Below, piece after piece: positions 14,913 to 47,479 of a stretch of DNA of 64,000 nucleotides. The notes under the pieces are model-generated. The model was not told the origin of the DNA. It ran no database searches and saw only the letters and a list, made by a program, of their open reading frames with translations. Position 1 is the first letter of the stretch, and the number at the start of each line of letters is the position of its first letter. The translations under genes were made by a program, and so were the position numbers. The stretch spans positions 5,893-69,892 of the forward strand of contig CAUJJC010000275.1 in the NCBI GenBank assembly GCA_963204975.1. Reading direction: 5' to 3'. The DNA comes from Verrucomicrobiota bacterium (GTDB lineage Bacteria; Verrucomicrobiota; Verrucomicrobiia; Verrucomicrobiales; Verrucomicrobiaceae).

Positions 14913-14936
14913 GTGTCTTTGTTTGTGGTCTTATGG

Positions 14937-14954
14937 TTCAACGGGTCAGTTGAA
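14937..14954. other. Small hairpin in the B-A spacer that carries the same 10-mer core as the leader hairpins
   Basis: TTCAAC-GGGTCA-GTTGAA. Its complement contains AACTGACCCG, identical to the loop core of the hairpins at 19293-19330 and 24390-24427. Confidence 0.4.
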
Positions 14955-14970
14955 AGGGTTCAAAACTTCA

Positions 14971-17900
14971 TCAAGGCGTCGCCTCCAGCGTGGCACTGCC
15001 GCTCAGCATTCGAGACGTGCTGATCGTGGTCTTCACCGGCAGCAATGCGGGCAGCTCGGGAAGTTGGTAGAAACCGTAGCCCTTCGTGCTCGTGCCATCG
15101 TTCACGATCATACCAGCGACGACCCCTGTGCGTGTGATCGGCTTGTTAGGCACCACCGTGGTATCGGGATCGAGCAGAATGAAGGTGCCCGTGAACGAGC
15201 CCGTGGTGCCAGCCGTGAAGATCGTGCCAGAGCCTGGCGTGAGTGTGACGGTCACAATACCCGGATTCGGTGCCATAATCTTGCCGATGACCGACATGCC
15301 TGGGACCAGCTCAATCGTGTTCAAGTTCAATCGTGTAGCGGGACTTGGAGCCGCCCCACCGAAGAAGGTCATCTTGGCGTTGTTGGGTCCAGCAGTCAGA
15401 CCCATCACAATCGAGCCTGTCGCAGGTATCGCATAAGGTCCTCCACGAACCTCAAGATCAAGCGAGGGGAAGCCCGCCTTGTAGCTGCGCGTCGTGGACT
15501 TGACCGGCTGGGGCTTCTTCAGCCAGCTCAGCACCGATGCTCCCATTCGGAAGCCACCCGTAGGATTCACGTTCAGCGTGCCAAGCAGCGATCCTGTGTT
15601 GGCGTAGAGCAGCTTGAACATGCTCATCGAACCATCCGCTTCGATCGTATTCGAGAACGTCACCACGGTGGCATCGGACAACTTGAACAAGCCAGTCGCC
15701 ACGCCAGTGCCCGCTACTTTGAACGCTCCAATACTGTGACCCTGAGGCTTGGCATCGTCACTTTGGTCAGCAGGCTTGAGCAGCATCGCAAAGGTATAGT
15801 GACCAGCGTAGGAACTCAGCGCTGTGGAGGGCTGGCGTGCCGTGAAGCCTGCGGTGGCAGCACCATCACTCACACTGCCACTGAGCGCACGCGTGCCCGG
15901 AGTGACGGTGAAATTGACGGTCAATGCTGGCAGTCCGGTGCGTGCAATCGTCATGCTGGCGGTCGAGTCCACCGTCAGTCCTGAAGGGCTCAGGGTGCCG
16001 CTCAGCGGATAGGACTTCAGCCCCAGGGTCAACGTGCCTGTGTAGGTGCCTGCCTGCGTCGTTGTAATCGTGACTCTTCCCCCGAGTTCATCATTGAGCA
16101 CAGCACTGCGGCTCACCACGCCTTGATAGCTCCCCACTGTCCCAGCCGCGAGGCCAAAGACCTCCATCGTATCGCTCACCTGCACACTCGGGCCTGCCGC
16201 ATTAGTGGCGATCACGGTCACGTTGGATGTTCCCACCGTGGTGGGGTTGCCCTTGATCAAGCCGGTCGTCGAATTGTATGTCAATCCCAGAGGTAGATTG
16301 GAAATCGTGAACGATGTCGGGTTGTTCGCAGCCGTGACCTGCTTGCTGTAGTTTTCACCGACTCGTGCATCGGCCAAGTTAAGAGGATTCACGACCGGAC
16401 GCACCGGCACCTCCAGTTGCGCGACGTGACTCGTGACCTTTCCCGAGGCGTTCGAGATCACCACGGAGTATGCGCCCGTGTCAGTGCTCAGCACATTATT
16501 CATCGTCAGCGTGGCAGTGGTCGCACCGATGAGCGCGTTGCCGTTCTTCAACCACTGATAAGACAAACCCGCGCCAGTCGCAGTCACGCTCAAGGTCGCA
16601 ATGGCATTCGGCGCGACGATCTTCGACACGGGATGCACTGTGATCGTTGGCGCGGCTGTCACGGTGAGTGTCGCGGTGTTGCTTGTCGCACTGCCGTTCG
16701 TGTTGGATACCACCACGCTGAAAGTGCCTGCCACTGCGGGATTCACCGTGAGCGTCGCTGAGTCGGTGCCAACGTTTGTCGTGCCGCGTTTCCATTGATA
16801 ATGCAAACCTGATCCCGTGGCTTCGACCGTGAACGTGGCACTGCCGCCTGTCACCGCGCCTGCATTCTTCGGATGTCGCACAATCATCGGCGAACCCGCC
16901 ACTTCATCGCCATCCAGCACGCCGTCGCCATCGTGATCAATGGACATCACCTCACCCATGCCCGGCAGCACCCCCATGAAGGTCACGCTGTCTGAACCCG
17001 TGATCTGCGCGAGCAAGGCCGTGCGTGTCACGCCCCCGTTCGATGCCTTGTCGAACTTGTAATTCGTGCCCGTCCACAGCAACGAACGCTGCTGGCCTCC
17101 AATCAGGCCGCGCGCGATCACACTGGTCTCGCCAGTAGCTGCGCGAGCTTCGAGCAAAGCGATGTCCGCTAGCACACCCGTGTCGCTCTTATTCGTCGCC
17201 GTTACTGTTGGCCCATAGCCCACGATCAATCCGACTCCGGTATCGAAGCACATCATGAACGCAGTCATGTTCGCAAAGTCCGCAGGCGTGGTCAGCGAAT
17301 CGAGCACATAAGGATGCACCGTTGGCAGCGCGAAGCCCGTGCCATCGCTCAACATGCCAAAGCCCGAGACGCTGGTGTTGCCAGCGCGTGGATCAAACTT
17401 CTGCTTCTGATACACTAGCCGCAGCGATGGATTCTTGATGGGCTGCACTCGGCCAACTTCCTGAGGCAGGTCGATGTTGTTGTTGCTGCCTCGCGGCAGC
17501 TCGTGGCACAAGGCACAGTGGTTGATGTGAAGATTGAACAAGTCACGCCCGGTCGAAGGGCTCGCCCCGTTGAAGGTGGTAGGCAGCGAGCGCTCCAGGG
17601 TGCGGTTCGGGTTCGGGTGCAGCACCAGCGAAAACAGGTAGCCAGCCAGCAAGTCCATGTCCTCGGACGTTTGCAGCTCTCCGCCCATCAAGTTCTCGAA
17701 GGTGCCGTTGAAGCTCTGCAAAGTCGGCTTGTCACCACGCCAGTGGAAGGGCGCACTGCTTTGAAGATCGCGCAGCGTTTGAGTCACCATCGGTCCTTTC
17801 ATCGGATGCATGGTGCGAGTGCGTGTTTTTGAGTCGTGAATGACCGCATTGATCGCCAACGCCGTGGCCATGTCCCCACCGGGATCACCAAGATCCCAGG

Positions 17901-19242
17901 CAAGGCCATCTCGATCCGCATCAATGTGACAGGTGCCGCAGGACATCGTGCCATTGCCGCTCAGACGTGCATCGAAGAGAAAGCCACGCCCGTCCTTGAT
18001 CTCCATGGGAGTCGGATCATGTGAGCCATTTTTCACTTCGCTCGACACCGTCAGCGTGTTCGTATCCACGACGCTGATCGTGTTGGCTAACTTGTTCAAA
18101 ACAAAGAGCCGACTGCCCGCCTCATCCAGTGCCAACCCGCGAGGACCGCGCATGTTCTTGGTGCTGCCACTCGTGCGCACATCCACACGCGAGAGCACTG
18201 CGCCCGTCGCTGGATCAATCTTCGCCACACGATCCGATGCGAACGCTGCCACCCAAGCCGAAGCACCATCGCTGCTAAAGATCATGCTCATCGGCTGAGC
18301 GAGCGCGGTTGCCTGAGCTGTCTGGTTTGGCAGCGTATTGTAGTCCACGCCAGGATTCAAATCGAAGGGCGTCGTTGTCGCTGTGGTCAAGGCAATGCGA
18401 GTGACGCGATTGTCCGCGAAGTGGCCGTTGAGCATCGGTTCGAAGCGCGTGCGATTCAGCGCCTCCGTGTTTGGAATCCAGAGTTCTTCAGTGCCTGGTC
18501 GCACTGCGACATCGAACAAGTTCGTGCCCACATCGCTGAGGTAGCGAGTCACGGTTTGCGTCGTTGTGTCGATCTCAGCGACGTCGTTATCGAGCACGGT
18601 GTAGCTGATCCGTGAGTCACTCGCATCCACGATCAGAGCCGTCTTCGGAGGCGCGGGCAGATTTGCATTCGTTGGTGCGGGCTGATCGGGCGCTAGGCTC
18701 GCAGGCAGCACGGTGGTGCGATTACCAGAGAAAAGGAAGGCAGCGAAGAGCTTGGTTCCGTCCTCGCTCACGCACAGAGCGCGTGGATAGTCGCCCGTCA
18801 GTGTGATGGTGCCGAGATCAGCACGCGTGCTAGCATCAAAAACTCGAATCAAACCAGCACGAGCGCACGAGATAAACGCCTTCCCGTTCGCGAACACCAC
18901 ATCCGCCGGTTCATCGTTCACCTTGAGAGTGGCGATCACGCTGCCTGATGAAAGCGATACGACCGTCACCGTGTCCGACACTTCATTCACCACCCAGGCT
19001 TCGTCATTGGTGCGAGCACGCACGCTGACGGGATCAAGACCCACGGGCACCTCGGCGGTCAGAGCCATCGTTGAGGCATTGAAAATGGAAAGCCGTGCAT
19101 CTGGCGAATTGATCGCGAGCAGCTTCGAGTTGTCAGGCGTGAGCGCGATGGGATGCACCTGACGTGCTTCGAAGTGCGTGAACGTGGACTGCGCTGCGAG
19201 CGATGACGCGAGCGTGATACTGAGGACGAAGATGCGTAGCAT
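14971..19242 (-). CDS. Giant secreted protein B: YVTN-type beta-propeller + di-haem cytochrome c peroxidase/MauG-like domain + Ig I-set repeats + cadherin-like Ig + shared C-terminal module
   Basis: Start set at ATG 19242 (MLRIFVLSITLASSLAAQ signal peptide). Two CXXCH motifs (SCGTCH, HCALCH) plus FHWRGDKPTLQ (CCP-like). DHDGDGVLDGDE Ca-binding-like motif. HYQWKRG and SYQWLKNG Ig repeats. Confidence 0.85.
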   Translation of the reverse strand: MLRIFVLSITLASSLAAQSTFTHFEARQVHPIALTPDNSKLLAINSPDARLSIFNASTMALTAEVPVGLDPVSVRARTNDEAWVVNEVSDTVTVVSLSSGSVIATLKVNDEPADVVFANGKAFISCARAGLIRVFDASTRADLGTITLTGDYPRALCVSEDGTKLFAAFLFSGNRTTVLPASLAPDQPAPTNANLPAPPKTALIVDASDSRISYTVLDNDVAEIDTTTQTVTRYLSDVGTNLFDVAVRPGTEELWIPNTEALNRTRFEPMLNGHFADNRVTRIALTTATTTPFDLNPGVDYNTLPNQTAQATALAQPMSMIFSSDGASAWVAAFASDRVAKIDPATGAVLSRVDVRTSGSTKNMRGPRGLALDEAGSRLFVLNKLANTISVVDTNTLTVSSEVKNGSHDPTPMEIKDGRGFLFDARLSGNGTMSCGTCHIDADRDGLAWDLGDPGGDMATALAINAVIHDSKTRTRTMHPMKGPMVTQTLRDLQSSAPFHWRGDKPTLQSFNGTFENLMGGELQTSEDMDLLAGYLFSLVLHPNPNRTLERSLPTTFNGASPSTGRDLFNLHINHCALCHELPRGSNNNIDLPQEVGRVQPIKNPSLRLVYQKQKFDPRAGNTSVSGFGMLSDGTGFALPTVHPYVLDSLTTPADFANMTAFMMCFDTGVGLIVGYGPTVTATNKSDTGVLADIALLEARAATGETSVIARGLIGGQQRSLLWTGTNYKFDKASNGGVTRTALLAQITGSDSVTFMGVLPGMGEVMSIDHDGDGVLDGDEVAGSPMIVRHPKNAGAVTGGSATFTVEATGSGLHYQWKRGTTNVGTDSATLTVNPAVAGTFSVVVSNTNGSATSNTATLTVTAAPTITVHPVSKIVAPNAIATLSVTATGAGLSYQWLKNGNALIGATTATLTMNNVLSTDTGAYSVVISNASGKVTSHVAQLEVPVRPVVNPLNLADARVGENYSKQVTAANNPTSFTISNLPLGLTYNSTTGLIKGNPTTVGTSNVTVIATNAAGPSVQVSDTMEVFGLAAGTVGSYQGVVSRSAVLNDELGGRVTITTTQAGTYTGTLTLGLKSYPLSGTLSPSGLTVDSTASMTIARTGLPALTVNFTVTPGTRALSGSVSDGAATAGFTARQPSTALSSYAGHYTFAMLLKPADQSDDAKPQGHSIGAFKVAGTGVATGLFKLSDATVVTFSNTIEADGSMSMFKLLYANTGSLLGTLNVNPTGGFRMGASVLSWLKKPQPVKSTTRSYKAGFPSLDLEVRGGPYAIPATGSIVMGLTAGPNNAKMTFFGGAAPSPATRLNLNTIELVPGMSVIGKIMAPNPGIVTVTLTPGSGTIFTAGTTGSFTGTFILLDPDTTVVPNKPITRTGVVAGMIVNDGTSTKGYGFYQLPELPALLPVKTTISTSRMLSGSATLEATP

Positions 19243-19292
19243 AGAGTGCTTGGATTTTTGGAGATAGTGATCCCCTGAGTTGAGTTGCTGTT

Positions 19293-19330
19293 GCCCGCCC
19301 GTTGAAACTGACCCGAAACAACGGGCGGGC
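19293..19330 (-). promoter_or_regulatory. Conserved leader hairpin, copy 1 (12-bp stem, 14-nt loop), 51 nt upstream of the protein B start
   Basis: GCCCGCCCGTTG-AAACTGACCCGAAA-CAACGGGCGGGC on the + strand. 35/38 identical to the copy at 24390-24427, including one compensatory pair. Confidence 0.6.
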
Positions 19331-19507
19331 TTTGCAAGGCTCGTGCGAGCGGATACCGGCCGCGCACACAAACCGCGCCCCAGCGCAACCACGAGGGTGC
19401 GTTGGGGTGCAAAGTAGTCTTGGGCTTCAGCCCGTGGGAGCGAGGCAGTCTTGTCAACTGCCTGCGCGCATGTGCATCTGCGAAGGGCGGGAGCCCATCA
19501 CTGTCTG

Positions 19508-31449: not shown

Positions 31450-32130
31450 TCATGGCACCTCCAGCCGATAGCCAATCCTCGGCTCTGTCTTGATTAAACC
31501 TGTGTGCTCAGGATCAATTTTCTGCCGCAGATGCGTGAAGTGGACGCGCAGGTAGTGGCTTTGGTCCTCGGCCTGCGGGCCCCAGACTTCGCGGAGCAGT
31601 TGCCTCTGCATCACCACCTTCCCGGCGTGCTTGATGAGGAGTCGGAGCAGGGCGTATTCGATGGAGGTAAGTTTTACTTCCTCGCCTTTGAGCTTCACGA
31701 GGCGTGCCGCGAGGTCCACTTCGAGCGCACCGGTTTTGAAAACGGGTTCTTCATCAACATCAGCACTGCGCCGCATGACGGCGCGGAGACGGGCGATGAC
31801 TTCGCGGGCGTTGAAGGGCTTGGTGATGTAGTCGTCGGCACCGAGGTCGAGCGCGGTGATCTTCTCATCGGCGGCATCGCGCACGGAGATCATCACGACG
31901 GGCACGCGGCTCCATTCGCGAATGCGCTTCAGCACTTCGAAACCGGTGATGTCTGGCAGGCCGATGTCGAGCAACACAGCATCGGGCCGCGTCGATGCGA
32001 CCTCAATCAAACCCTGCTGTCCGGCCTCGCACTCGCGCACCTTCCAGCCAGCGTCCTCAAGGCAGAGTCGCAGCAACCGGCGCATGGGTTGCTCGTCGTC
32101 AATGATGAGGATGGTCGGCTGGGCAATCAT
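31450..32130 (-). CDS. kdpE: KdpE response regulator (OmpR family)
   Basis: Start set at ATG 32130 (ATGA overlap with the kdpD stop). Receiver ILIIDDE...LLDIGLPDITG. Winged-helix C-terminus LRQKIDP...TEPRIGYRL. Confidence 0.9.
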   Translation of the reverse strand: MIAQPTILIIDDEQPMRRLLRLCLEDAGWKVRECEAGQQGLIEVASTRPDAVLLDIGLPDITGFEVLKRIREWSRVPVVMISVRDAADEKITALDLGADDYITKPFNAREVIARLRAVMRRSADVDEEPVFKTGALEVDLAARLVKLKGEEVKLTSIEYALLRLLIKHAGKVVMQRQLLREVWGPQAEDQSHYLRVHFTHLRQKIDPEHTGLIKTEPRIGYRLEVP

Positions 32131-34784
32131 GCGTGTGGCGAATCCTTGCAAGGAAAGGTCATCGTGAAAACCGCACCGCCATCGGGTGCATTCGTGGCTG
32201 TGACTTTGCCGCCGAGCGCTCGCGCGAAGCCGCGCACGATACTGAGACCCAGACCGGCACCACCGGCGGGGGATTGACTGGAGCGATAGAACTTGTCGAA
32301 CAAGCGCGGCAAATCTTCTTCGGCGATGCCAGCACCATGATCACGCACAGCAAGGCTCCACTGATCACCTTGCTTTGTCGCGGTGACTTCGATGCGGCCT
32401 TCGTTGGGAGTGTAGGCGAGTGCATTGAGCAACAGGTTGGTCACACAGGCTTCGAGCAGACCGGCATCGGTGTGCACGGGTGGGAAGTTGTCGGGCACCT
32501 GGATCACGATGCGTGATTGTTGAGCGGCAGGCACATGATGATCCACCGCCGCGCGCAGCATTTCCTCGATGTCGCACCAGTCGGCCTGAGGCTTGAGCAG
32601 GCCGCTTTCAATGCGGGTCATGTCGAGCAATTGCGTGGTCACGCGCTCGAGGCGGCAAGTGGCGCTGTCCATCTCGCCGAGCAGCAGCGCGCCACGTTCA
32701 TCGGCGGGCTTGGTTTGCAAATCGAGCGAGGCACGCAGCGCCGCGATGGGTGTCTTCAGCTCGTGCGAGACGCTGTCGAGCAGTGCCTTGTGCAGGCGGT
32801 TGGATTGCTCGGCGATCTCAGCGCGCTGCATCGCGGAGGCGAGGTGCTCCTTCTCCAGCACGAGCCCGAGTTGTGCGCACAGGGCTTCGAGCAGGCTGCG
32901 TTCCTCATGTCGCAAAGTGCGACCGCTCGGCCATTCAAGCACGAGCGCACCCATGATGGAACTGCGCGTCTGCAACGGCAGGCAGGTGACACGGCTTTCC
33001 GGCAGCGTCTCGGTGAATCGTCCGGCGGCCTGACGATGCGACTGCACCCAGGTGGCAACACTCCAATCCTTGTTCGTGATGGCAAGTGATGATCCTGCCA
33101 CGGGCTCGCGCAGCAAGGAGTGATCGTTGTCGTTCCGGCGCAGTAACGCGAGAGGAGCATCGAAGAGTTCATGCAAACGCACGAGCGCACGCTGCATGGC
33201 ATCGGACTCATCCAGCGCGCCCGAAGTGAGCTGCGTAAAGCCGAGCAGCGTGGCGGTGCGTTGCTCGCGCTGACGTTCCAACTGCTGCTGCCTGCGCAGC
33301 TTCGAGGTCACATGCCCGATCACCAGTGCGACGATGAAGTAGGCGGCGAACATGATACCGTCGTGCGTCTCTTTGATGTAAAACGTGAAGCGCGGCGGGA
33401 TGAAGAGGAAGTCCCACAGCAGCGCGCTCACCGTCGCCATCACTAGGATCGGCACACGCCCCAGTCGCAGCGCTGAAAGCACGACCGCGAGCAGATAAAT
33501 CAGCGCCACCGACCAGTAGCCGATCCACGACACGGCGAACCAGCAAGCTGCGGTGAGTGCGGAGACAATGCCCAGCGCGATGCCTGTCTCGGCCAGGCGG
33601 TCTGAAGACGTGGTTGTGTTGGTGGAGATGATCTTCGGTGCCGTCGATTCGCCCCGTCTTGGTCGGACCACCTGCACATCAATGTCACCGCTGCCCGCGA
33701 TCAAGCGATCCACGAGCGAGGGCCGCCACCATGCCCACAAGTCGATACGACGCTCCGGCTTGCCCACGATGATCTGCGTAGCGTGGCGCTCTCGCGCCAC
33801 TGCCAGCACTGCATCGCTCACGCTTTGCCCGCTTGTCTGCACCACCTCGGCACCGAGCGATTGCGCCAGCGTGATGTGGCGTGTGAGAGTAGCGCGTGCG
33901 GCTTCACTCAGCACGTCTCCCGTGTCCACCGTGACCGCGAACCACGTCGCATCCAGCATCCCAGCGGCGCGTCTGGTTCGGCGAATCAGACTCTCCGAAC
34001 TCGGGCTCGGTCCGATGGCCACCAGCAGCTTCTCGTTGGTGCGCAGCGGCCCGGTGCGTTTTCGCTCAGCAGCGAACTCGCGAAAGTCTTTGCCCGCGCG
34101 CTCCGCCGCATAGCGCAGCGCGAGTTCACGCAGGGCAGTGAGATTACCCATGCGGAAGAACTGATCCGCTGCCATCGCCGCGCGCTCACCTTGATAGACC
34201 TTGCCCTCCGAGAGCCGTGCGCGCAGTTGCTCCGGCGGCAGATCAATGAGCACCACTTCATCGGCGCGATCGAGCAAGGAGTCCGGCACTGTCTCGCGCA
34301 CAGTGACGCCCGTCAGCTCTGCGACGATTTCGGCACGGCTTTCCACATGTTGAATGTTCAGCGTGGTCCACACCGAGATGCCTGCATCCAGCAGTTCGGC
34401 CACGTCTTGATGCCGTTTCGGATGTCGGCTTCCGGGCACGTTCGTGTGCGCCAGTTCGTCCACCAGGGCGATGCTTGGCCGTCGGGCAAGCAGTGCATCC
34501 AGGTCCATCTCACGCACCGTGATGCCACGATGCTCGGAGCACTTCAGCGGCACGACTTCGAGCCCCTCTATCAACGCCGCTGTCTCCTTGCGCCCATGCG
34601 TTTCTACCACGCCGATCACCGCCTCGGAGCCACGCGCTGCTTGCAGCATGGCAAACGTTTTGCCCACGCCCGGACACATGCCGAGGAACACGCGCAGCCG
34701 AGCCACCTCTGCGCGCGGCTCCTGCATCTCGGCAAGGAGCGCATCAGGATCAGGGCGATGATCGTCGTCGGACATCGGGTTCAA
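32127..34784 (-). CDS. kdpD: KdpD sensor histidine kinase
   Basis: 885 aa. KdpD N-terminal P-loop GMCPGVGKTFAML, Usp-like segment, 4 TM helices, H-box SHELKTPIAAL, G-boxes DHGAGI and GGAGLGLSIV. Confidence 0.92.
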   Translation of the reverse strand: MNPMSDDDHRPDPDALLAEMQEPRAEVARLRVFLGMCPGVGKTFAMLQAARGSEAVIGVVETHGRKETAALIEGLEVVPLKCSEHRGITVREMDLDALLARRPSIALVDELAHTNVPGSRHPKRHQDVAELLDAGISVWTTLNIQHVESRAEIVAELTGVTVRETVPDSLLDRADEVVLIDLPPEQLRARLSEGKVYQGERAAMAADQFFRMGNLTALRELALRYAAERAGKDFREFAAERKRTGPLRTNEKLLVAIGPSPSSESLIRRTRRAAGMLDATWFAVTVDTGDVLSEAARATLTRHITLAQSLGAEVVQTSGQSVSDAVLAVARERHATQIIVGKPERRIDLWAWWRPSLVDRLIAGSGDIDVQVVRPRRGESTAPKIISTNTTTSSDRLAETGIALGIVSALTAACWFAVSWIGYWSVALIYLLAVVLSALRLGRVPILVMATVSALLWDFLFIPPRFTFYIKETHDGIMFAAYFIVALVIGHVTSKLRRQQQLERQREQRTATLLGFTQLTSGALDESDAMQRALVRLHELFDAPLALLRRNDNDHSLLREPVAGSSLAITNKDWSVATWVQSHRQAAGRFTETLPESRVTCLPLQTRSSIMGALVLEWPSGRTLRHEERSLLEALCAQLGLVLEKEHLASAMQRAEIAEQSNRLHKALLDSVSHELKTPIAALRASLDLQTKPADERGALLLGEMDSATCRLERVTTQLLDMTRIESGLLKPQADWCDIEEMLRAAVDHHVPAAQQSRIVIQVPDNFPPVHTDAGLLEACVTNLLLNALAYTPNEGRIEVTATKQGDQWSLAVRDHGAGIAEEDLPRLFDKFYRSSQSPAGGAGLGLSIVRGFARALGGKVTATNAPDGGAVFTMTFPCKDSPHA

Positions 34785-35311
34785 TGCAGCGTATCCAGAG
34801 TCTGATTGAGCTTCAACACATTCACCTGGCCGTCGCCAATCAAGGCCGAGACGAGTGCTTCATCGAGGCCGCGAGCAGTGCAGACACGCTTCAACTGAAA
34901 ACGCGCGGCGTCGGCGCTAATGTGCGGATCGAGACCGCTGCCACTGGCTTGCACGAGTTCCGCAGGCACGGGTGCGTTATCAGGGAGGTTGTGAGCTTTG
35001 CGCAAGGCGGCAGCGCGATCACTGATGACTAGCTTCAAGGCGGCACTCGTGGAGCCGAGATTGCTGGCACCGCTGGGCACGGTGGCGAAAGCGGCGGCGC
35101 TCGGCCTGGGCCAGAAATAGCGTGGTGATTTGAACTCTTGAGCGAGTAACTCGGAGCCGAGCAGCTTGCCGTCAGCACCGGTGATGAGACTGCCATTGGC
35201 CTGATGAGCGAAAGCTACTCTGGCGATGCCGGTGACGAGGAGAGGATAACCGACGCCGGTGATCAAAGTCAGCGTCGCGAAGGTTAGAAGAGCATGGAGA
35301 AGTGTTTTCAT
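34781..35311 (-). CDS. kdpC: K+-transporting ATPase subunit KdpC
   Basis: 176 aa with a single N-terminal TM helix. Positioned between kdpB and kdpD. Has the SGSGLDPHIS motif. Confidence 0.9.
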   Translation of the reverse strand: MKTLLHALLTFATLTLITGVGYPLLVTGIARVAFAHQANGSLITGADGKLLGSELLAQEFKSPRYFWPRPSAAAFATVPSGASNLGSTSAALKLVISDRAAALRKAHNLPDNAPVPAELVQASGSGLDPHISADAARFQLKRVCTARGLDEALVSALIGDGQVNVLKLNQTLDTLH

Positions 35312-35367
35312 GAGAAGAACGGCCGTCCCGGTCGTAAGCAGGGTCGCGACCGAAACGGTCGTTCTCC
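35312..35367. repeat. Palindromic element, short copy (56 bp), filling the whole kdpC-kdpB spacer
   Basis: GAGAAGAACGGCCGTCCCGGTCGTAAGCAGGGTCGCGACCGAAACGGTCGTTCTCC. Its termini are an inverted repeat. It aligns to both ends of the 111-bp copy. Confidence 0.8.
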
Positions 35368-37499
35368 TAGCCGAGTTGTGTGAGGGTTAGAAGGAGGTCA
35401 ATGAGCTTGATGCCGACGAAGGGCACCAGCAGCCCGCCGAGGCCGTAGATCAGGAGGTTGCGCCTCAGCACCACGGCGGCTCCTGCGGCACGATAGGCCA
35501 CGCCTTTCAATGCCAGCGGAATGAGCGCGATGATGATCAGCGCATTGAAGATGACGGCGCTGAGAATGGCGCTCTGCGGGCTGTGCAGATGCATCAAATC
35601 GAATGACTTCAGCGGGCCGTCTCCACTGAGCGCATAAAGACCACCAAACATCGCGGGCAGAATGGCAAAGTATTTGGCCACATCGTTTGCGATGCTGAAG
35701 GTGGTGAGCGCGCCTCGCGTCATGAGCAGTTGCTTGCCGATCTCCACGATCTCGATGAGCTTCGTGGGATTGCTGTCGAGGTCCACCATGTTGCCTGCCT
35801 CGCGGGCGGCCTGCGTGCCGGTGTTCATCGCCACACCCACATCGGCCTGTGCAAGCGCGGGGGCATCGTTGGTGCCATCGCCAGTCATCGCGACGAGCTG
35901 CCCCTTCGCCTGCTCATCGCGAATGCGGCGTAGTTTGTCCTCGGGTGTCGCCTCGGCCATGAAGTCATCCACGCCTGCTTCGGCGGCGATGCTTGCGGCG
36001 GTCAATGGATTGTCGCCCGTAATCATCACGGTGCGGATGCCCATCTGGCGAAGCTGCGCAAAGCGCTCGCGGATGCCGCCTTTGACCACGTCTTTCAGCT
36101 CGATCACACCCAGCACCTGCGCGCCATCGGCGACGACGAGCGGCGTGCCACCGGATTGCGCGATAGACTTCGTGCATTGGTCCACGAGTTCGGGGAATGC
36201 GCCGCCGTTCGATTTCACCCAGGCCTTGATCGCTTCGCCAGCGCCCTTGCGCAGCGAGCGCGTGCCAAGATCCACTCCGCTCATGCGCGCCTGCGCGGTG
36301 AACGGAATAAAGGTAGCATCAAGCTCATGCAGCTCACGCCCGCGCAAGCCATGACGCTCCTTCGCCAGCACGACCACGCTGCGTCCTTCCGGTGTTTCGT
36401 CCGCGAGCGACGAAAGCTGTGCGGCCTCAGCAAGCGTCTTCTCATCAACGTCCGGCGCAGGATGAAACGCGACCGCCATGCGATTGCCGAGCGTGATCGT
36501 GCCTGTTTTATCCAGCAACAGAACAGAGATGTCGCCCGCCGCCTCGACCGCACGACCACTCGTCACGAGCACATTGCGCCGCACCAAGCGATCTATCCCA
36601 CTGATGCCAATCGCACTGAGCAAGCCGCCAATGGTGGTAGGAATGAGACAGACAAACAACGCGATCAGCACTGGCAGACTTGTGTCCACTAGAGAACGAT
36701 CAGTCTCAGTCGTTATCTGGGCCTCGGGGCGTCTAGCCCCGACAGCATCTGAAGCGTGATCGAGACGATCACGATCCCAGTTTACGACCGGGACAGATCG
36801 TTCTCCAAAATTCACAAACGATGGCAGCGTGCCGACGGCGAACACAAACACCAGCGTGAGACTTGTGAGCAGGATACTCAAGGCGATCTCGTTCGGCGTG
36901 CGTTGACGACGCGCGCCTTCAATCAATGAGATCATGCGATCCACGAAGGATTGGCCGGGCTCGCTGGTGACACGTATGAAGATTCGATCACTGAGCACAC
37001 GCGTGCCTCCAGTTACCGCGCAGCGGTCGCCACCACTTTCGCGGATCACCGGAGCGCTTTCACCTGTGATTGCCGACTCATCAACGGTCGCAATGCCAAG
37101 AATGACCTCTCCATCCGCTGCGATGATCTCTCCGGCCTCGCACACAATGGTGTCCCCCTTCACCAGATCTGCGGCAGCAACGGCATCAATCACATCGCCC
37201 TGAACTCGGCGTGCGGACTGAACCTCCCGCAGCTTACGAAGCTCCGCTGCTTGCGCCTTGCCGCGACCTTCAGCGATAGCTTCGGCGAAGTTGGCAAACA
37301 GCACCGTGAACCACAGCCAGGCCGTGAGTTGAATGTGAAACAACGTTGGCTCAACAGTGGTGACAATGGTCGTGGCGATGCTGCCGAGCCACACAGTGAA
37401 CATCACCGGATTGCGCCATTGCCAGCGTGGATCCAGCTTCCGCAAGCTGGACCAGAACGCGGGAATGAGAAGTTCTTTGGAATAGAAGGATGAGGTCAT
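35367..37499 (-). CDS. kdpB: K+-transporting P-type ATPase subunit KdpB (carries an in-frame ~38-codon repeat-element insert)
   Basis: 710 aa. [44 protein letters not shown]. Confidence 0.93.
36691..36806. repeat. Palindromic element copy inside kdpB, inverted relative to the kdpA copy
   Basis: AGAGAACGATCAGTCTCAGTCGT...ACGACCGGGACAGATCGTTCTCC. Its reverse complement aligns along the full length of 38791-38901. Confidence 0.8.
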
Positions 37500-37501
37500 G
37501 A

Positions 37502-37583
37502 GGAGAACGACCTTCTCGGTCGCGTTGCAGTGCGCGAGCTAGACGCCCGCTTGCCCAGAGGACGACCGGGACGGTCGTTCTCC
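37502..37583. repeat. Palindromic element copy (82 bp) in the kdpB-kdpA spacer
   Basis: GGAGAACGACCTTCTCGGTCGC...CCCAGAGGACGACCGGGACGGTCGTTCTCC. It occupies most of the 94-nt spacer. Confidence 0.8.
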
Positions 37584-37593
37584 GGGTGTGAAA

Positions 37594-39348
37594 TCAAAAG
37601 GTGCGACCATTATTCATGAGCATGTGCTCCACGATGGGGCCGAGCGTAAGGGCGGGCAGGAAGGTGAGGCCGCCAACGATGAGGATGACGCCGAGGAGCA
37701 GCACGATGAACAAGCCGCCATCAGTGGGAAAGGTGCCGGGACCGGGCTCAGCGATGCGCTTCTGCGCCATGCGACCAGCCAGCATCAGTGTCGGCACAAT
37801 CACGCCGAAACGTCCGACGAGCATCGCGAAGCTGAGGCCGTAGTTGTAGAAAGGAGTGTTCGCATTGAGCCCACCGAAGGCGCTGCCGTTGTTGTTTGCG
37901 GCGCTGGCCCAAGCATAGAGCGCTTCGCTGAAAGCATGCGGACCAGCATTGGTGAGGGACGCTCTGCCCGCCTCAGAGAGCACGCTCAACGCGGTGCCGA
38001 TGAGCACCACCAGACTCGGCAAGATCACGGCGACAGCAGCACAGATCACTTCGCGTGCTTCGATACGCTTGCCCAAATACTCTGGCGTGCGTCCGACCAT
38101 CAGGCCCGCTAGGAAGACGGTGAGCACGACGAACATGATCATGCCATAAAGCCCCGAGCCAACACCGCCGAAGATGATCTCGCCCAGCAGCATGTTCACC
38201 AGTGCGACGAGTCCACTCAGCGGCATGAGGCTGTCGTGCATCGCGTTGACCGATCCGTTGGAGGCAGCAGTGGTCGCGGTGGCCCACAGCGCGCTGTCTG
38301 CGATGCCAAAGCGCGTCTCCTTGCCCTCTAGCATGGTTAGCACACCGAGCGATGGATTACTCTGATGCTCTGCCCACAAGGCCGCACCCAGCCCGGTGAG
38401 CAACAGCACGAGCATGGTGGCAAACAAACACCAGCCGTGTCTGCGATGGCCGGTCATGCGGCCAAACATGAACGGGAAGCCAGCAGCGAGCGCGAGGATG
38501 GCAAAGCATTGGAGGAAGTTCGAGAGACGCGTCGGATTCTCGAACGGATGCGCCGAGTTCACGCCGAAGAAGCCGCCGCCATTGGTGCCGAGCTGCTTGA
38601 TCGCGATCTGTGAGGCCGCCGGTCCAAGAGGGATCACCTGCGCAGAACCTTCGAGCGTAGTCGCACTCGCAAACACATCAAAGGTCTGCGGCACACCCTG
38701 CTGCACGAGCACAAGCGACAAGAGAATCGAAAGCGGCAGTAGCACGTAGATCGTGGCCCGCGAGACGTCGCGCCAGAAGTTGCCCAGGCCGGAGAACGAC
38801 CGTCCCGGTCGTAAGCTGGGTTCGCGACCATCTCGGTCGCACGGAGAATCAGCGGGCGAGACGCCCACCTGCCCAGAGGACGACCGAGACGGTCGTTCTC
38901 CCAGCCCGCGCACGAGCGCCGCTGCGACTGCCATGCCCGTGGCGGCGCTGAGGAAGTTCTGCACGCCGAGTCCGAGCATCTGCGTGAGGTAACTCATCGT
39001 CGCCTCGCCGGAATAGGCCTGCCAGTTGGTGTTCGTGAGAAAGCTGATTGCCGTGTTCAGTGCCAAAGGGAACGGCACGTTTGCGAGTGACTGAGGATTG
39101 CCGGGCAGTTTCGCCTGCAGCATTTGCAGCAACATCAGCACCACGAATCCGATCCCATGAAACAGCAGCAGCGCCTTCAAATACTGCGGCCAGTTCATTG
39201 AACGCGAGGTATCGCCAGCCATCAGTTTCTCGCCCGGCAGTGGGCGTTCGACCTGGAACACCCAGGCTAGATAGCGACCGATGAACGGCGCGAGACCGAT
39301 CAGCAGTGCAAGATACAAAAGCAGTTCCAGGACATCGTCTGTTTTCAT
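37594..39348 (-). CDS. kdpA: K+-transporting ATPase subunit KdpA (carries an in-frame 37-codon repeat-element insert)
   Basis: 584 aa, polytopic. GTNGGGFFGVNSAHPFENPT selectivity-filter-type motif. First gene of the operon. Confidence 0.93.
   Translation of the reverse strand: MKTDDVLELLLYLALLIGLAPFIGRYLAWVFQVERPLPGEKLMAGDTSRSMNWPQYLKALLLFHGIGFVVLMLLQMLQAKLPGNPQSLANVPFPLALNTAISFLTNTNWQAYSGEATMSYLTQMLGLGVQNFLSAATGMAVAAALVRGLGERPSRSSSGQVGVSPADSPCDRDGREPSLRPGRSFSGLGNFWRDVSRATIYVLLPLSILLSLVLVQQGVPQTFDVFASATTLEGSAQVIPLGPAASQIAIKQLGTNGGGFFGVNSAHPFENPTRLSNFLQCFAILALAAGFPFMFGRMTGHRRHGWCLFATMLVLLLTGLGAALWAEHQSNPSLGVLTMLEGKETRFGIADSALWATATTAASNGSVNAMHDSLMPLSGLVALVNMLLGEIIFGGVGSGLYGMIMFVVLTVFLAGLMVGRTPEYLGKRIEAREVICAAVAVILPSLVVLIGTALSVLSEAGRASLTNAGPHAFSEALYAWASAANNNGSAFGGLNANTPFYNYGLSFAMLVGRFGVIVPTLMLAGRMAQKRIAEPGPGTFPTDGGLFIVLLLGVILIVGGLTFLPALTLGPIVEHMLMNNGRTF
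38791..38901. repeat. Palindromic element, full-length copy (111 bp), inside kdpA
   Basis: GGAGAACGACCGTCCCGGTCGTAAGCTGGG...CCCAGAGGACGACCGAGACGGTCGTTCTCC. Each end holds a mini-hairpin ACGACCG-N3-CGGTCGT. Confidence 0.85.
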
Positions 39349-39419
39349 GACAGGCGATGTGTCGGCCAGCAGGCGATTTTTTGCCTGTAAAGGCTCGACC
39401 TCGGGGCGCTAAGAAGTCG

Positions 39420-39646
39420 CTAAGCCAGAAGGTGATTTCGCTTCGCAAGCACTTCGTCGATCTTCGGCCCGATCACCTTCGCCCAGATCTCGTAACCTTT
39501 CGGACTGAGATGCAGCAGGGCGGGCAGATATCCTTGCTCACGGTGCCGACTTTGTTCATGCGTTTCGTGACAATGACGCTCTCGCTCTGATCACCGAATG
39601 TCTTCCACACCTCCGCAAAGGTGAGTGAAGTCGTTGTGAGGAAGTC
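39420..39646 (-). pseudogene. C-terminal remnant of an SGNH/GDSL (PAF-acetylhydrolase-like) hydrolase, frameshifted and lacking an N-terminus
   Basis: Two frames read ...FAEVWKTFGDQSESVIVTKRMNKVGTVSKDI and then LPALLHLSPKGYEIWAKVIGPKIDEVLAKR*. There is no start codon, and the fragment begins right after the kbl stop. Confidence 0.5.
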
Positions 39647-39648
39647 TC

Positions 39649-44633: not shown

Positions 44634-45068
44634 ATGAGTCGGTCGCACATTCCGGACTTACTTCGGGAATTAGTTCGACGACGTGCCGGGTGTGTCTGTG
44701 AGTATTGCCTGCTTCACGAAGACGACATCGTCCATCGTTTTCATGTCGATCATGTAATCAGTGAAAAGCACGGCGGCCCCACCGAGGATCACAATCTGGC
44801 CCTCTGCTGTCCCTTTTGTAACCGAGCCAAGGGCAGCGACGTCGGCAGCTTGGAAGGTGGCGAGTTCGTGCGCTTGTTCAATACACGCATCGACCGCTGG
44901 TCCGATCACTTCTCCCTGAAAGGCGATCTGATTACGCCGCTCACCACTGTGGGTGCGGTGACAGTGCGGGTGCTGTGCATCAATGCCGCCCATCGCCTCA
45001 CGCTGCGACAATCCTTGAAGGAAGCGAGCTTGTTTCCGAGTGAACAGGCGCTGGCTACCATGAAGTAG
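44634..45068 (+). CDS. HNH endonuclease (small, stand-alone)
   Basis: 144 aa. CEYC...HVDHVISEKHGGPTEDHNLALCCPFCNRAKG (Cys4 zinc + H-N-H core). Confidence 0.85.
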   Translation: MSRSHIPDLLRELVRRRAGCVCEYCLLHEDDIVHRFHVDHVISEKHGGPTEDHNLALCCPFCNRAKGSDVGSLEGGEFVRLFNTRIDRWSDHFSLKGDLITPLTTVGAVTVRVLCINAAHRLTLRQSLKEASLFPSEQALATMK

Positions 45069-45296: not shown

Positions 45297-45320
45297 GATG
45301 TGACTGCTGGACGGGGTGAC

Positions 45321-47000
45321 TTACGGCACCGGGAAGCGCTTGTTCACTTCGTGCACTTCGGCGCGGATGGCGGCGAGGACTTCGGCGTTGTCTTTGTTGT
45401 CGAGGGCGCGCGCGATCCAGCCAGCGATGGTCTGCATCTCGGCTTCCTTCATGCCACGCGTGGTGACGGCAGGGGTGCCGAGGCGGATGCCGCCGCCGAG
45501 GGTGTTCTTCTCGGTGTCGTAGGGGATGCCGTTCTTGTTGCAGGTGATCGCTGCCTTGTCGAGCGTCTCGCTGGCGATCTTGCCGTTGAGACCCTTTGGA
45601 CGCAGGTCCACGAGCATGAGGTGATTGTCCGTGCCGCCGCTGACGATGCGGAAGCCATGGCTGGTCATCGCAGCAGCGAGCGCCTGGGCGTTCTTCACGA
45701 CCTGCTTCTGGTATTCGATGAACCCAGGCTGCAGCGCTTCGTGGAAGCACACCGCCTTGGCTGCGATGACGTGCATGAGTGGGCCGCCCTGCACGCCGGG
45801 GAAGACCTGGCTGTTGATCTTCTTGATGAGTTCCTCGCTGTTCGTGAGGATCATACCGCCGCGAGGTCCGCGCAGGGACTTGTGCGTGGTGGTAGTGACG
45901 AAGTCCGCGTATTCCATCGGCGAGGGATGCACGCCTGCGGCCACGAGACCGGCGATGTGCGCCATATCGACGAAGAGGTAAGCGCCCACGCTCTTGGCGA
46001 TCTCGCTCATCTTCTTGAAGTCGATGATGCGCGGATAGGCGGAGGCACCGGCGGTGATCATCTTCGGCTGCTCGCGCTTGGCGACTTCGGCGAGTTCATC
46101 GTAGTCGATGAGTTCGTCGGACTGGCGGACGCCGTATTGGCAGAAGTTGTAGAAGCGGCCCGAGAAGTTGGCCAGATTGCCATGAGTCAAGTGACCGCCG
46201 TGGGCAAGGTTCATGCCGAGCACCTTGTCGCCGGGCTGGAGCACGCTGAAATAGACAGCGGCGTTGGCTTGCGAGCCGGAGTGCGGCTGCACGTTGGCGA
46301 ACTTCGCACCGAAGAGCTTGCAGGCGCGGTCGATGGCGAGTTGCTCGGCCTTATCGACTTCCTCGCAGCCGCCATACCAGCGCTTGGCGGGATAGCCTTC
46401 CGCATACTTGTTGGTCAGGCAGGAGCCCTGAGCGGCCATGACGGCGCGCGAAGTAAAGTTCTCGCTCGCGATGAGTTCGATGTGGTCCTGCTGACGCAGC
46501 GCTTCGCCACGCACGATGGCGGCGATTTCGGGGTCGGTGGCTTCGAGGATGTCGTTGGGGGTCTTGTTCATGTTCATCTTGTCAACTCTGCGTCCATGGC
46601 GTCCGCCGCTGAAGCTCGCGCTCAGCCAGGCATCGGCGATGGCATTTCCTTGTTCGGGGGAAGTGGCTTTGGCACCCATCACCAGCACGTTGCTGTTGTT
46701 GTGCTCGCGCGTGATCTTGGCGGTCTCAACATCGGCCACAAGGCTGGCTTGGATGCCTGGGTGGCGGTTCGCCGCGATGCTCATGCCGATGCCCGTGGTG
46801 CAGAAGAGCATGCCTGCATCTGCGCTGCCATCGAGCACGCGCGAGGTCACGAGATCAGCGAAGTCCGGGTAATCCACAGACGCATGACCATGCGTGCCCA
46901 GGTCATCCACGGCATAACCTTTCTCACGGAGGTAGGCGACAACGCTGTCCTTCAGATCAACGGCACCGTGATCGGCACCCATGGCTATGCGCTGACTCAT
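45321..47000 (-). CDS. rpiB-glyA: Fused ribose-5-phosphate isomerase B / serine hydroxymethyltransferase ORF
   Basis: Single 559-aa ORF. N-terminal RpiB ([33 protein letters not shown]) runs without a stop into GlyA ([22 protein letters not shown]). Confidence 0.85.
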
Positions 47001-47479
47001 GCTTCTTCGCTCTTCGGTTTGGTGGTTTGTTCGATGTAGGCGAGCACCGTGGGCAGGAGCTTTTCCAGCATCCAGCGCGTGTCGTCATAGATGCGGCGCG
47101 GGCCGCCGAAGGGATCGGTCACGTCCGCGTTGCGCAGCATGTCCTCGGCGGCGAACTCGCTCACGAGATACGCTTTGCCGTCGGCCTCGGGGAACTCATC
47201 GACCACGGCCTCCAGGTGATGCTTCGCCATGGTGAAAATGTGCGTCGCTTGCTCGACCAGATCGCGAGTCAGCGGACGGCTCTTGAACCCGCTCACGTCC
47301 ACGCCCTTTTCCTTCAAGATGTCAGCGGTGTGCTTGCTCGCATTGCCACCGGGCATCGCGGCGACGCCTGCTGAGCCAACCTGGTAGTCGCTGCGGTCCT
47401 TGACCAGTTCGCGGAAAAGCCCCTCAGCCATCGGGCTGCGGCAGGTGTTTCCGGTGCAGACAAAAAGGACGTGTTTCAA
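46997..47479 (-). CDS. Low-molecular-weight protein tyrosine/arginine phosphatase
   Basis: 160 aa. CX5R(S) loop [16 protein letters not shown] motif near the C-terminus. Confidence 0.9.

Follow-up and report, generated by a model that had tools for sequence, protein, structure and literature searches.

REPINs, or REP dimers, are doublets of REP sequences for which RAYT tyrosine transposases are the presumed mobilising enzymes (Bertels and Rainey, 2011, PMC3116915; PMC3733652). In the CGTC-tagged REPs, the stem is 8-9 bp long and opens with A/T pairs, the loop has 4-5 nt, and the unit carries a terminal CGTC and a CCA tail (PMC3733652). Opitutus terrae, a verrucomicrobium, has the largest numbers of REPs and REP dimers lying in frame within genes, and some of its genes have been hit twice (Di Nocera et al., 2013, PMC3733652). 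Rickettsia palindromic elements (RPEs) have been summarised as in-frame insertions in Rickettsia genes (Ogata et al., 2000; see PMC10969869, PMC3733652). The window analyzed here is a 64-kb stretch of DNA from an uncultured member of the Verrucomicrobiota. Copies of a palindromic sequence in its kdp operon very probably represent a new, rare family of REPIN/RPE-like, non-autonomous mobile elements.

A palindromic element in the kdp operon

The operon is encoded on the minus strand. kdpA (37594-39348, 584 aa) and kdpB (35367-37499, 710 aa) are intact open reading frames that match Escherichia coli KdpA (6hra_A, phmmer E = 4e-160) and KdpB (E = 2e-264), and kdpC (34781-35311, 176 aa) matches the Pfam KdpC family (E = 8e-56). 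The two-component regulators kdpD (32127-34784; Pfam KdpD, HisKA, HATPase_c) and kdpE (31450-32151; Pfam Response_reg, Trans_reg_C) lie downstream. An nhmmer profile built from the copies found exactly four loci in the window, the next match having E > 1. kdpD, kdpE and the rest of the ~60 kb outside the cluster carry no copy. If four copies were scattered uniformly over 64 kb, the chance of all of them lying within 3.6 kb would be P ~7e-4.

The full-length copy, c4 (38791-38901, plus strand, 111 bp, E = 7e-33), occupies codons 150-186 of kdpA. Its 22-nt termini are at 38791-38812 and 38880-38901, and it is read as an open frame with the translation GERPSRSSSGQVGVSPADSPCDRDGREPSLRPGRSFS. A second intragenic copy, c3 (36691-36806, minus strand, 116 bp, E = 7e-31), covers codons 232-270 of kdpB with a 39-residue reading, is oriented opposite to the other three and is the most divergent of them (69-76 % identity to the others). 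The remaining copies fill spacers. An 82-bp derivative, c2 (37502-37583, plus strand, E = 5e-20), makes up 82 of the 94 nt between kdpA and kdpB, beginning 10 nt past the kdpA stop and ending 2 nt short of the kdpB ATG. The 56-bp internal-deletion derivative c1 (35312-35367, plus strand, E = 1e-6) is the whole kdpB-kdpC spacer; the G of the kdpB TAG stop serves as its final base, and the opposite end adjoins the kdpC ATG. The left end of c1 and both c3 termini are degenerate variants. An earlier sequence-only reading had proposed these four homologous copies, with this placement relative to the kdp genes, c3 inverted within kdpB, and none in the rest of the window. The profile search, the alignment of the copies, and the open reading frame and spacer coordinates agree with it on each point.

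The full element is a palindrome of ~111 bp, and copies range from 56 to 140 bp when those on other contigs are included. The terminal inverted repeat, GGAGAACGACCGNNNCGGTCGT, pairs perfectly in c4. Each repeat is laid out as GGAGA-ACGACCG-NNN-CGGTCGT and contains its own mini-hairpin with a 7-bp stem and a 3-nt loop; the termini read GGAGA-stem-loop-stem followed by AAG or CCT. The sequence-only reading had recognized the shared termini, but gave the inverted repeat as 12 bp where it is 22 bp. It had also pointed out the mini-hairpin ACGACCG-N3-CGGTCGT, which at up to two mismatches occurs six times in the window, always within a copy, compared with 0.28 expected from shuffles. The terminus GGAGAACGACCG, also at up to two mismatches, has 14 matches in the window compared with 7.2 expected. 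Internal to the termini are a CTGGG/CCCAG inner stem and two small hairpins, which form a structured spacer of ~67 nt between the ends.

The entire unit is predicted to fold into one long hairpin when single-stranded, whether as DNA or as RNA. Folding the copies, a check proposed by that reading, gave stable predicted structures of -32 to -97 kcal/mol (z -4.8 to -9.5 against shuffles), for example -75.9 kcal/mol for the RNA of c4 (z = -8) and -32.3 kcal/mol for c1 (z = -5.2). RNAalifold gave 43 consensus pairs. Compensatory changes affect seven of these, every one of them in the two internal hairpins, and the terminal stem does not vary.

Insertion history and host genes

Related metagenome contigs carry the operon with and without the element. 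Two of them (L016, L017) are empty at all four sites. A third (L015) holds only the kdpA copy and the kdpA/kdpB-spacer copy and is empty at the other two sites, while two 99 %-identical strains (L014, L021) are filled at every site covered by their contigs. Where sites are empty, the spacers are 12-18 nt long (kdpA/kdpB in L016 and L017; kdpB/kdpC in L015, L016 and L017), and KdpB relatives at 84-91 % identity are without the 28 extra residues. Such empty sites in orthologous kdp operons, which had been suggested as a check on the element, indicate that the four segments are insertions and not ancestral sequence. The series of filled, half-filled and empty operons indicates that copies accumulated stepwise. 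Read from these alleles, acquisition took no fewer than two rounds: the copies in kdpA and in the kdpA/kdpB spacer arrived first, and those in kdpB and in the kdpB/kdpC spacer later.

Copies have also been shortened after arrival. At the c2 site, the copy in L014 and L021 is full-length at 110 bp, and c2 in the window is shorter by 28 bp, a strain-level deletion. The deleted 28 nt lie between two 15-nt direct repeats (CGACCGAGAAGGTCG), and the same deletion is found in the window and L015 and is absent from L014 and L021. Short derivatives have arisen repeatedly, through slippage from one internal direct repeat of the form CGACCG-N3/4-GGTCG to another.

The internal sequences bear on where the copies came from. 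Both c1 and the c4 of the window have TAAGC...CGCGACC, and the c4 of L015 has CAAAC...GGTGACC. That c1 carries the derived states of the neighbouring, window-lineage c4 supports local spread, and at least c1 was probably made by short-range copying from c4. Together with acquisition at two or more times, this fits the earlier suggestion that one operon was hit four times or that the element spreads locally. The c3 copy keeps family-ancestral states that were lost from the window's c4, and, being the most divergent although among the younger insertions, was probably not copied from its neighbours. Three other contigs (L018, L024, L020) have the same termini around different cores in intergenic settings unrelated to kdp. 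The 22-nt termini in unrelated contexts suggest that the element is able to reach distant sites or other genomes. An exact-terminus scan of 241 million metagenome records recovered only four true contigs, and a scan of 185,579 representative genomes, the host genome not among them, recovered no true copy. By these scans the family looks very rare, which sets it apart from REP/REPIN families with their typically high copy numbers.

That reading was right about the family, but omitted that kdpA and kdpB stay open and in frame. The phmmer matches to E. coli KdpA and KdpB span full length in two blocks each and are broken only at the insert. The insertion points are between residues 155 and 158 of E. 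coli KdpA (c4) and around residues 240-252 of E. coli KdpB, between TM3 and TM4 (c3). In place of c4, the empty alleles L016 and L017 have 18 nt (6 codons); c3 with 4 more nt stands where the empty alleles have the 12-codon loop AIKAAGRDGAAA (11-12 codons, 33-36 nt). Both inserts take the place of part of a loop between transmembrane helices, are in frame and stop-free and add 37-40 residues, and their lengths net of the replaced codons are multiples of 3. The consensus has a TAA in c3's orientation, past which c3 is shifted in frame by internal indels of +1, +3 and +1. At the c4 junction, the window and L015 differ in length by exactly 3 nt. For kdpA, dN/dS is 0.10 against L015, with c4 present in both lineages (dS = 0.65), and for kdpB it is 0.056-0.064 against relatives. 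By these estimates both genes are under strong purifying selection after insertion, which supports KdpA and KdpB being still functional with their inserts. From frame preservation and the purifying selection on the genes, we infer that the inserts are translated; the intragenic copies would be 37-40 extra loop residues, tolerated like RPEs. In both spacers, the 22-bp stem would bury the ~20 nt that precede the start codons of kdpB and kdpC, so that translation of these genes probably relies on an upstream terminating ribosome to melt the stem. Another verrucomicrobial contig, L036, has an unrelated 107-nt palindrome in frame in its kdpB.

Mobilisation and alternative readings

We found no transposase, integrase or Y1/HUH domain among the ~50 open reading frames of the window in Pfam searches. 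A non-autonomous element, as the sequence-only reading also concluded, is therefore the natural reading. Target-site duplications, which that reading had named as something to look for, are absent from every junction, and neither a duplication nor a shared target motif was found in the filled-versus-empty alignments and flanks of seven independent insertions. Instead, three of the four sites have lost host nucleotides or had them replaced, amounting to 18 nt, 33-36 nt and almost all of the kdpB/kdpC spacer. Such loss is predicted by neither classical DDE nor IS200/IS605 transposition and counts against transposition. The element termini are precise at every junction. An enzyme whose gene lies elsewhere in the genome would mobilise the element in trans. 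Hairpin termini and absent target-site duplications favour a single-strand route, through a HUH/tyrosine transposase (RAYT/IS200-IS605-like), over a DDE transposase.

The label "MITE/REP-like" given to the element at first is partly apt. Terminal inverted repeats, a size that leaves no room for a transposase, and presence/absence polymorphism are all MITE features, but an assignment to MITEs in the strict sense is not supported by the filled-versus-empty junctions, which show no target-site duplication. Since no cognate IS was found in the window either, REPIN/RPE-like is the better label. Like a REPIN, the element has two inverted REP hairpins at its ends and folds as a whole into one hairpin, and like an RPE it is inserted in frame into known protein genes, in loops of kdpA and kdpB, with the reading frame kept. 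The conserved tag at one end of REPs, GTAG or of GTRG type (as defined in PMC3733652), is in none of the aligned copies. The CGTC-tagged REPs, which include RPE-4 and RPE-6, do not fit a 7-bp stem with a 3-nt loop and no CCA tail; CGTC occurs at one arm incidentally.

The terminal stems raise the question of whether a mobile arrival has since been retained by the operon for a cis-acting structural role, in which case the clustering would result from selection and not chance. In the two orthologous copies shared by the window and L015, the terminal stems differ at 2/76 positions and the cores at 27/105, with a divergence of ~34 % at third codon positions in the adjoining kdpA (Fisher p = 1e-5; binomial p = 1.5e-11). 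Near-invariant stems beside drifting cores and this level of neutral change imply sequence-specific constraint or gene conversion, and the comparison of window and L015 shows no local low-divergence tract of the kind left by recent recombination. The stems are far more conserved than expected of a decaying selfish insertion, which points to some continuing constraint. In the polycistronic mRNA, the perfect 22-bp stems could serve as RNase III/degradosome sites, mRNA stabilisers, or gates that set the relative translation of KdpA, KdpB and KdpC; in the DNA, they could instead be protein-binding sites. Retention for such a role would also suit the significant clustering, the compensatory changes that preserve internal hairpin pairing, and spacer copies that reach to within 0-2 nt of the kdpB and kdpC starts. 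However, the same termini are conserved in unrelated intergenic copies (L018, L024), where conservation may reflect recognition by the mobilising enzyme or gene conversion. Close relatives have an element-free operon with short spacers, copies are readily shortened by internal deletions, and they have neither terminator-like tails nor, at the gathering threshold over the window, any match in Rfam 15. We consider retention for a cis-acting role unlikely as the main explanation, and it overlaps with that of a REPIN/RPE-like mobile element rather than excluding it.

Templated copying linked to replication or repair within the operon, by template switching at hairpins or by gene conversion, would involve no transposition at all. 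It would account for the absent target-site duplications and for the nucleotides replaced at three junctions, and c1's likeness to nearby c4, the confinement of every window copy to 3.6 kb and the rarity of the family elsewhere all agree with it. It is at odds with the 22-nt termini in unrelated contexts on other contigs, with the precise termini at all junctions, and with an inverted, most divergent c3 that has ancestral states lost from c4. As an account of the copies it is improbable. Still less probable is that the intragenic copies are never translated, being removed from the mRNA like introns or bypassed by ribosomes (cf. phage T4 gene 60 and the mitochondrial 'byp' GC-clusters). Very stable, GC-rich hairpins within open reading frames and CTGG-type repeats near both c4 junctions might suggest this, but the repeats are native Gly-Leu codons that are also in the empty alleles. 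The stop-free inserts with net lengths in multiples of 3, the compensating frameshifts by which c3 avoids an in-frame TAA, and the 3-nt junction indel in c4 all speak for translation. No ribozyme or intron family was matched, the sole Rfam match at E ≤ 1 over the operon being a chance snoRNA elsewhere in kdpB. An element of 111 nt is below the size of any known self-splicing intron.

Significance and comparison with known systems

As an event, in-frame insertion of a palindromic repeat is already known from Rickettsia and Opitutus. With the kdp element, REP/RPE-like behaviour within genes is seen in one more uncultured verrucomicrobial lineage, and the phylum's kdp operons show it more than once, with repeat families that are unrelated. 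The empty, half-filled and fully filled operons make up a natural allele series for KdpFABC, a well-understood membrane machine whose structures have been solved and for which transport assays are established. The series opens questions on the tolerance of membrane-protein loops, on effects on operon expression, and on insertion without target-site duplications. Stems that barely vary over a dS of ~0.65 give a concrete and testable sign that a supposedly selfish repeat is under constraint. In annotation work, such elements lengthen proteins and operon spacers and leave genes unbroken. There is a small chance that four copies with host-selected 22-bp stems amount to an operon-specific system that controls KdpFABC post-transcriptionally, by RNase III-type processing or by a ribosome-gated coupling of kdpA, kdpB and kdpC translation. 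The repeated hits on the kdp operon would then reflect targeted or short-range homing followed by selection, and a selfish palindromic repeat would have been domesticated as a modular RNA regulator, even inside coding sequence.

Among known systems, REPINs resemble the kdp element in having two short, inverted, palindromic REP-like units that form one long hairpin, and its ~110 bp is like the 110-bp doublet class of Pseudomonas fluorescens REPINs. Termini better conserved than the spacer, the lack of target-site duplications, and presence/absence variation among relatives are further likenesses. The kdp element differs in being without a GTAG tag or CGTC-type architecture. Its family appears to be very low-copy and narrow, whereas REPINs reach tens to hundreds of copies per genome and are mostly extragenic; half of the copies in the kdp window are intragenic, and no RAYT could be linked to them. 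The O. terrae families encode VGPALAAG and GTGVPPV, and the peptides of the kdp element are different. Bacterial MITEs such as Correia, ERIC, BOX and Nezha are likewise small, with terminal inverted repeats, no transposase, transcript hairpins and possible in-frame fusions (PMC10969869). Classical MITEs, however, are flanked by target-site duplications and can mostly be traced to a recognisable parent IS that shares their inverted repeats; for the kdp element, the junctions show no duplication and the window contains no such IS. RPEs are similar as palindromes of ~100-150 bp that lie in frame in housekeeping genes, are apparently translated as tolerated surface or loop segments, and also occur between genes. 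Their host is of another phylum, and the likeness is drawn from their description, not from sequence relatedness. RPEs are scattered over many genes of a reduced genome, whereas the kdp element has four copies in one operon, two of them filling its spacers.

Copies and architecture of the kdp element

Positions 35200-39000 of the window were read directly and an nhmmer profile of the copies was run over the full 64 kb. The four homologous segments described in the sequence-only reading were recovered at the same positions, and their placement relative to the kdp genes had been described correctly. One copy lies inside kdpA (c4; 38791-38901, 111 bp, E=7e-33), one inside kdpB in reverse orientation (c3; 36691-36806, 116 bp, E=7e-31), one in the kdpA-kdpB spacer (c2; 37502-37583, 82 bp, E=5e-20) and one in the kdpB-kdpC spacer (c1; 35312-35367, 56 bp, E=1e-6). 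As that reading had concluded by eye, the window holds no further copy (next-best scores in the 64 kb all E>1). Under uniform placement in the window, the probability that 4/4 copies fall within 3.6 kb is ~7e-4. The mini-hairpin ACGACCG-N3-CGGTCGT, also noted earlier, occurs six times in the window against 0.28 expected, each time within a copy. The inverted repeat had been given as 12 nt; the closing stem is actually 22 bp, with the repeat GGAGAACGACCGNNNCGGTCGT.

Folding, which the earlier reading had recommended, gives a single long hairpin for every copy. Folded as kdp mRNA, c4 reaches -75.9 kcal/mol (z=-8.0 against dinucleotide shuffles), and the remaining copies and relatives have z-scores of -4.8 to -9.5 against shuffles. 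The closing stem encloses a CUGGG/CCCAG stem together with a pair of small hairpins. RNAalifold, run on six family members that are not identical, gives a consensus of 43 pairs, of which 7 have compensatory double changes. All seven are within the two internal hairpins (e.g., GCGACC/GGTCGC, GTGATCG/CGATCAC, GTGAGCG/CGCTCAC); the terminal stem has no compensatory pairs and is conserved in sequence itself. The short copies are internal deletions, which have recurred among the copies, between hairpin-made direct repeats CGACCG-N3/4-GGTCG. A 28-bp deletion bounded by two 15-nt direct repeats CGACCGAGAAGGTCG is found in c2 and in L015:4465-4546, on a metagenome contig with a related kdp operon. The same 28 bp are retained in two 99 %-identical strains (L014:604-713 and L021:3532-3641). 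The deletion common to the window and the distant L015 thus reflects either slippage that happened more than once or a polymorphism of long standing. A consensus scan of the copies ruled out an intrinsic terminator or sigma-70 promoter (no terminator-like tails, no promoter consensus), and Rfam returned nothing relevant at gathering or permissive thresholds.

The ~50 ORFs of the window include no transposase, integrase or HUH domain, which bears out the earlier remark that the window is free of transposases. A stand-alone HNH endonuclease ORF (44634-45068, plus strand, 144 aa; Pfam HNH, E=3e-11) lies ~5.3 kb from the kdp operon, preceded by a 98-aa ORF of unknown function and an HTH-cupin regulator; no link between this ORF and the element was found. 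The 579-aa ORF at 45300-47039 (plus strand) has no Pfam match, an unusual codon-position composition (GC1 0.80, GC3 0.62) and a ~40-nt overlap with the end of the next gene; it could be a false gene call or code for a low-complexity protein. Two adjacent, very large ORFs of 1155 and 1473 aa (11445-19392, minus strand) contain Ig-like, beta-propeller and CorA-like copper-binding/MauG-like segments. With SCO1/SenC, cytochrome c and HMA-domain genes close by, the region may encode a cluster of surface proteins related to copper or redox chemistry.

Filled and empty sites, junctions and distribution

The gene content of the window, which includes PSCyt1/PSCyt2/PSD1 and DUF1501, is that of a PVC superphylum member. 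The closest named KdpB relatives are from Chthoniobacteraceae or Verrucomicrobia MAGs (~71 % identity), and look-up of the window KdpB gave no exact-protein record. Contigs of closer relatives, fetched from a KdpB search, form a graded identity series. L014 (from sample ENA ERZ28653773, KdpB 99 % identical to the window) is filled at the kdpA-kdpB spacer (110 bp), kdpB and the kdpB-kdpC spacer, with the kdpA site not on the contig. L021 (from sample JGI Ga0075163, operon DNA near-identical) is filled at kdpA, the kdpA-kdpB spacer (110 bp) and kdpB, with the kdpB-kdpC site not on the contig. L015 (~90 %) carries the element in kdpA and the kdpA-kdpB spacer and is empty in kdpB (683 aa) and the kdpB-kdpC spacer (18 nt). 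The empty sites that the sequence-only reading had proposed looking for were also found at all four positions in L016 (~88 %; KdpA 552 aa, KdpB 684 aa) and L017 (~84 %; KdpA 554 aa, KdpB 682 aa), where the spacers are 12-18 nt. Because L015 is filled at two sites and L016 and L017 at none, copies were gained in at least two rounds, the kdpA and kdpA-kdpB sites earlier and the kdpB and kdpB-kdpC sites later, which gives both the polarity and the order of insertion. This agrees with the earlier suggestion of repeated hits on one operon or local spread.

The derived states common to c1 and the window-lineage c4 point to local copying as the source of c1. Identity between c2 and c4 is 84 % and between c4 orthologues 86 %, i.e., they are equally diverged. 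The most divergent kdp copy is c3 (69-76 %), which retains family-ancestral states; its source was probably a different copy, or else it changed quickly under coding constraint.

At the kdpA junction, the 111-nt element stands in place of 18 nt (six codons, AGRTGD or AGRSAD). In kdpB, 116 nt and 4 further nt replace a 12-codon loop, AIKAAGRDGAAA. Nearly all of the host kdpB-kdpC spacer has been replaced; the element gives the G of the TAG stop and adjoins the kdpC ATG. The kdpA-kdpB spacer copy lies 10 nt past the stop and 2 nt ahead of the ATG. Target-site duplications, which the earlier reading had suggested looking for, were absent from seven independent insertions, as was any common flanking motif. 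GGGCTGG and GGCCTGGG around c4 were rejected as a target-site duplication, since both are native Gly-Leu codons also present in empty alleles. No standard transposition chemistry is known to account for the host nucleotides missing from the junctions.

An exact-terminus scan of 185,579 representative genomes, the source genome not among them, found no true copies. Its 13 single hits in unrelated taxa were attributed to chance, the nhmmer match being confined to the pattern itself. Viral contigs gave no match in the same scan, and 241 million metagenome records gave four true contigs. One is L021, in the same kdp operon. The others carry a 140-bp copy between convergent ORFs (L018), a 140-bp copy downstream of a small HTH gene (L024) and a partial copy at the contig end (L020); all three have the termini of the kdp element and different cores. 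Since these termini occur at non-kdp sites, the family is, on this comparison, mobile beyond kdp. It appears to be rare and narrowly distributed. In L024, a ~42-nt unit (GGGAGACTCGGGAACGACGATTGGTGATTCAATGCGCCACCT) is repeated in tandem about four times at the start of the contig (1-180); the small HTH gene lies between these repeats and the element.

Reading frames and selection

Neither gene has its ORF broken: kdpB spans 35367-37499 (minus strand, 710 aa) and kdpA 37594-39348 (minus strand, 584 aa). No convincing small hydrophobic ORF (>=20 aa) for kdpF was seen at 39349-39648, the 300 nt that separate kdpA from the aminotransferase gene upstream of it. KdpA and KdpB align end to end with the E. 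coli KdpFABC chains of known structure, each as two blocks split exactly at the element. The KdpB insert (residues 238-274) maps to E. coli residues ~251-252 and the KdpA insert (residues 149-183) between residues 155 and 158. From the known E. coli topologies, we take these sites to be the periplasmic TM3-TM4 loop of KdpB and the cytoplasmic loop joining pore repeats 1 and 2 of KdpA. Hydropathy of the window proteins places both inserts between hydrophobic segments, in agreement with loop placement. An AlphaFold2 model of KdpB (9-sequence alignment) had a mean pLDDT of 43.6, too poor to use, and drew the insert as a coil between two long helices.

The frame is preserved in both genes. The codon map has c4 and c3 beginning in the same phase, GGA GAA CGA (G-E-R), in opposite orientations. 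The c4 frame is open end to end and encodes GERPSRSSSGQ in KdpA. Read in the c3 orientation, that phase of the consensus contains a TAA, which c3 avoids through indels of +1, +3 and +1 that shift the frame and then restore it. Between the window and L015, dN/dS is 0.10 for kdpA (dS=0.65, both with c4) and 0.056 for kdpB. The genes have therefore remained functional after insertion and are under purifying selection, and pseudogenisation is ruled out by these values (0.06-0.10).

The c4-encoded peptide is under weaker constraint than the remaining KdpA (pN 0.11 vs 0.06); its nucleotides are nonetheless more conserved than neutral sites. We partitioned the two pairs orthologous between the window and L015, c4 and the kdpA-kdpB spacer copy. 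The terminal stems differ at 2 of 76 positions, the mini-hairpin loops at 2 of 12 and the cores at 27 of 105, and ~34 % of flanking kdpA third codon positions differ (stems vs cores, Fisher p=1e-5; stems vs neutral rate, binomial p=1.5e-11). A recent recombination tract was ruled out, as third-position divergence is uniform along kdpA with no local trough. With stems so much less diverged than cores or neutral sites, the termini are either under sequence-specific constraint or homogenised by gene conversion.

Origin of the insertions and known repeat families

We consider a mobile REPIN/RPE-like element probable. Its inserts would be translated as loop residues of KdpA and KdpB. The hairpins at the termini, and the missing target-site duplications, suggest that an enzyme of the single-strand (HUH/tyrosine) type mobilises it in trans, and c1 would have arisen by short-range copying. 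Initiation of kdpB and kdpC probably depends on the stem being melted by the ribosome that terminates upstream. That the element has in addition been exapted for a function in kdp is unlikely. Smaller chances go to purely local templated copying and to non-translation of the inserts.

The kdpA-frame insert peptide had no match among 1.84 billion representative proteins, a slight hint that it is not a widespread module. A six-frame concatenated peptide query of 5.8 billion proteins scored nothing and missed even P0001, a protein with the identical 40-aa insert, probably because low-complexity words took up the list of candidates, so we give this result no weight.

Another verrucomicrobial kdp operon (L036; ENA ERZ28573514 scaffold_29303) carries a 107-nt palindrome (3488-3594) in frame in the KdpB nucleotide-binding domain. 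Its family is unrelated to the window element; its 45-nt arms are 87 % complementary and it codes ~30 extra residues (PVRTPGILPGSDPREQAGSPLAAQAGS). The termini, GGAAC-ACAGGCT-TCC-AGCCTGT, share their design with the window element, both having GGAxx and then a 7-bp stem around a TCC loop. A shorter insertion occupies this KdpB loop in protein P0015. The L036 kdpB-kdpC spacer (4489-4753) is 265 nt, vs 12-18 nt, and holds another long inverted-repeat element (CTTTGGACTGCGGCGGCTTGACGCCGC ... GCGGGGTCAAGCCCCCGCACTCCAAAG), so that kdp operon spacers seem to have been invaded repeatedly in the phylum.

REPINs are hairpin-forming REP doublets, which in P. fluorescens include classes of 71 and 110 bp (PMC3116915), and Rickettsia palindromic elements are inserted in frame (reviewed in PMC10969869). 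GTAG- and CGTC-tagged REPs were catalogued by Di Nocera et al. (2013; PMC3733652), who found the most intragenic GTAG REPs, among the genomes examined, in the verrucomicrobium Opitutus terrae. Among those intragenic REPs are dimers coding 20-30 residues, some genes are hit twice, including both uvrA genes, and REP termini can provide stop codons (PMC3733652). The kdp element has the architecture of a REPIN and behaves like a Rickettsia palindromic element, but it has no GTAG or CGTC signature, its encoded peptides are unlike those of the O. terrae families, and its copy number appears low. Thus, supported by the L036 insertions, we class it as a new family of the known REPIN/RPE-like kind.
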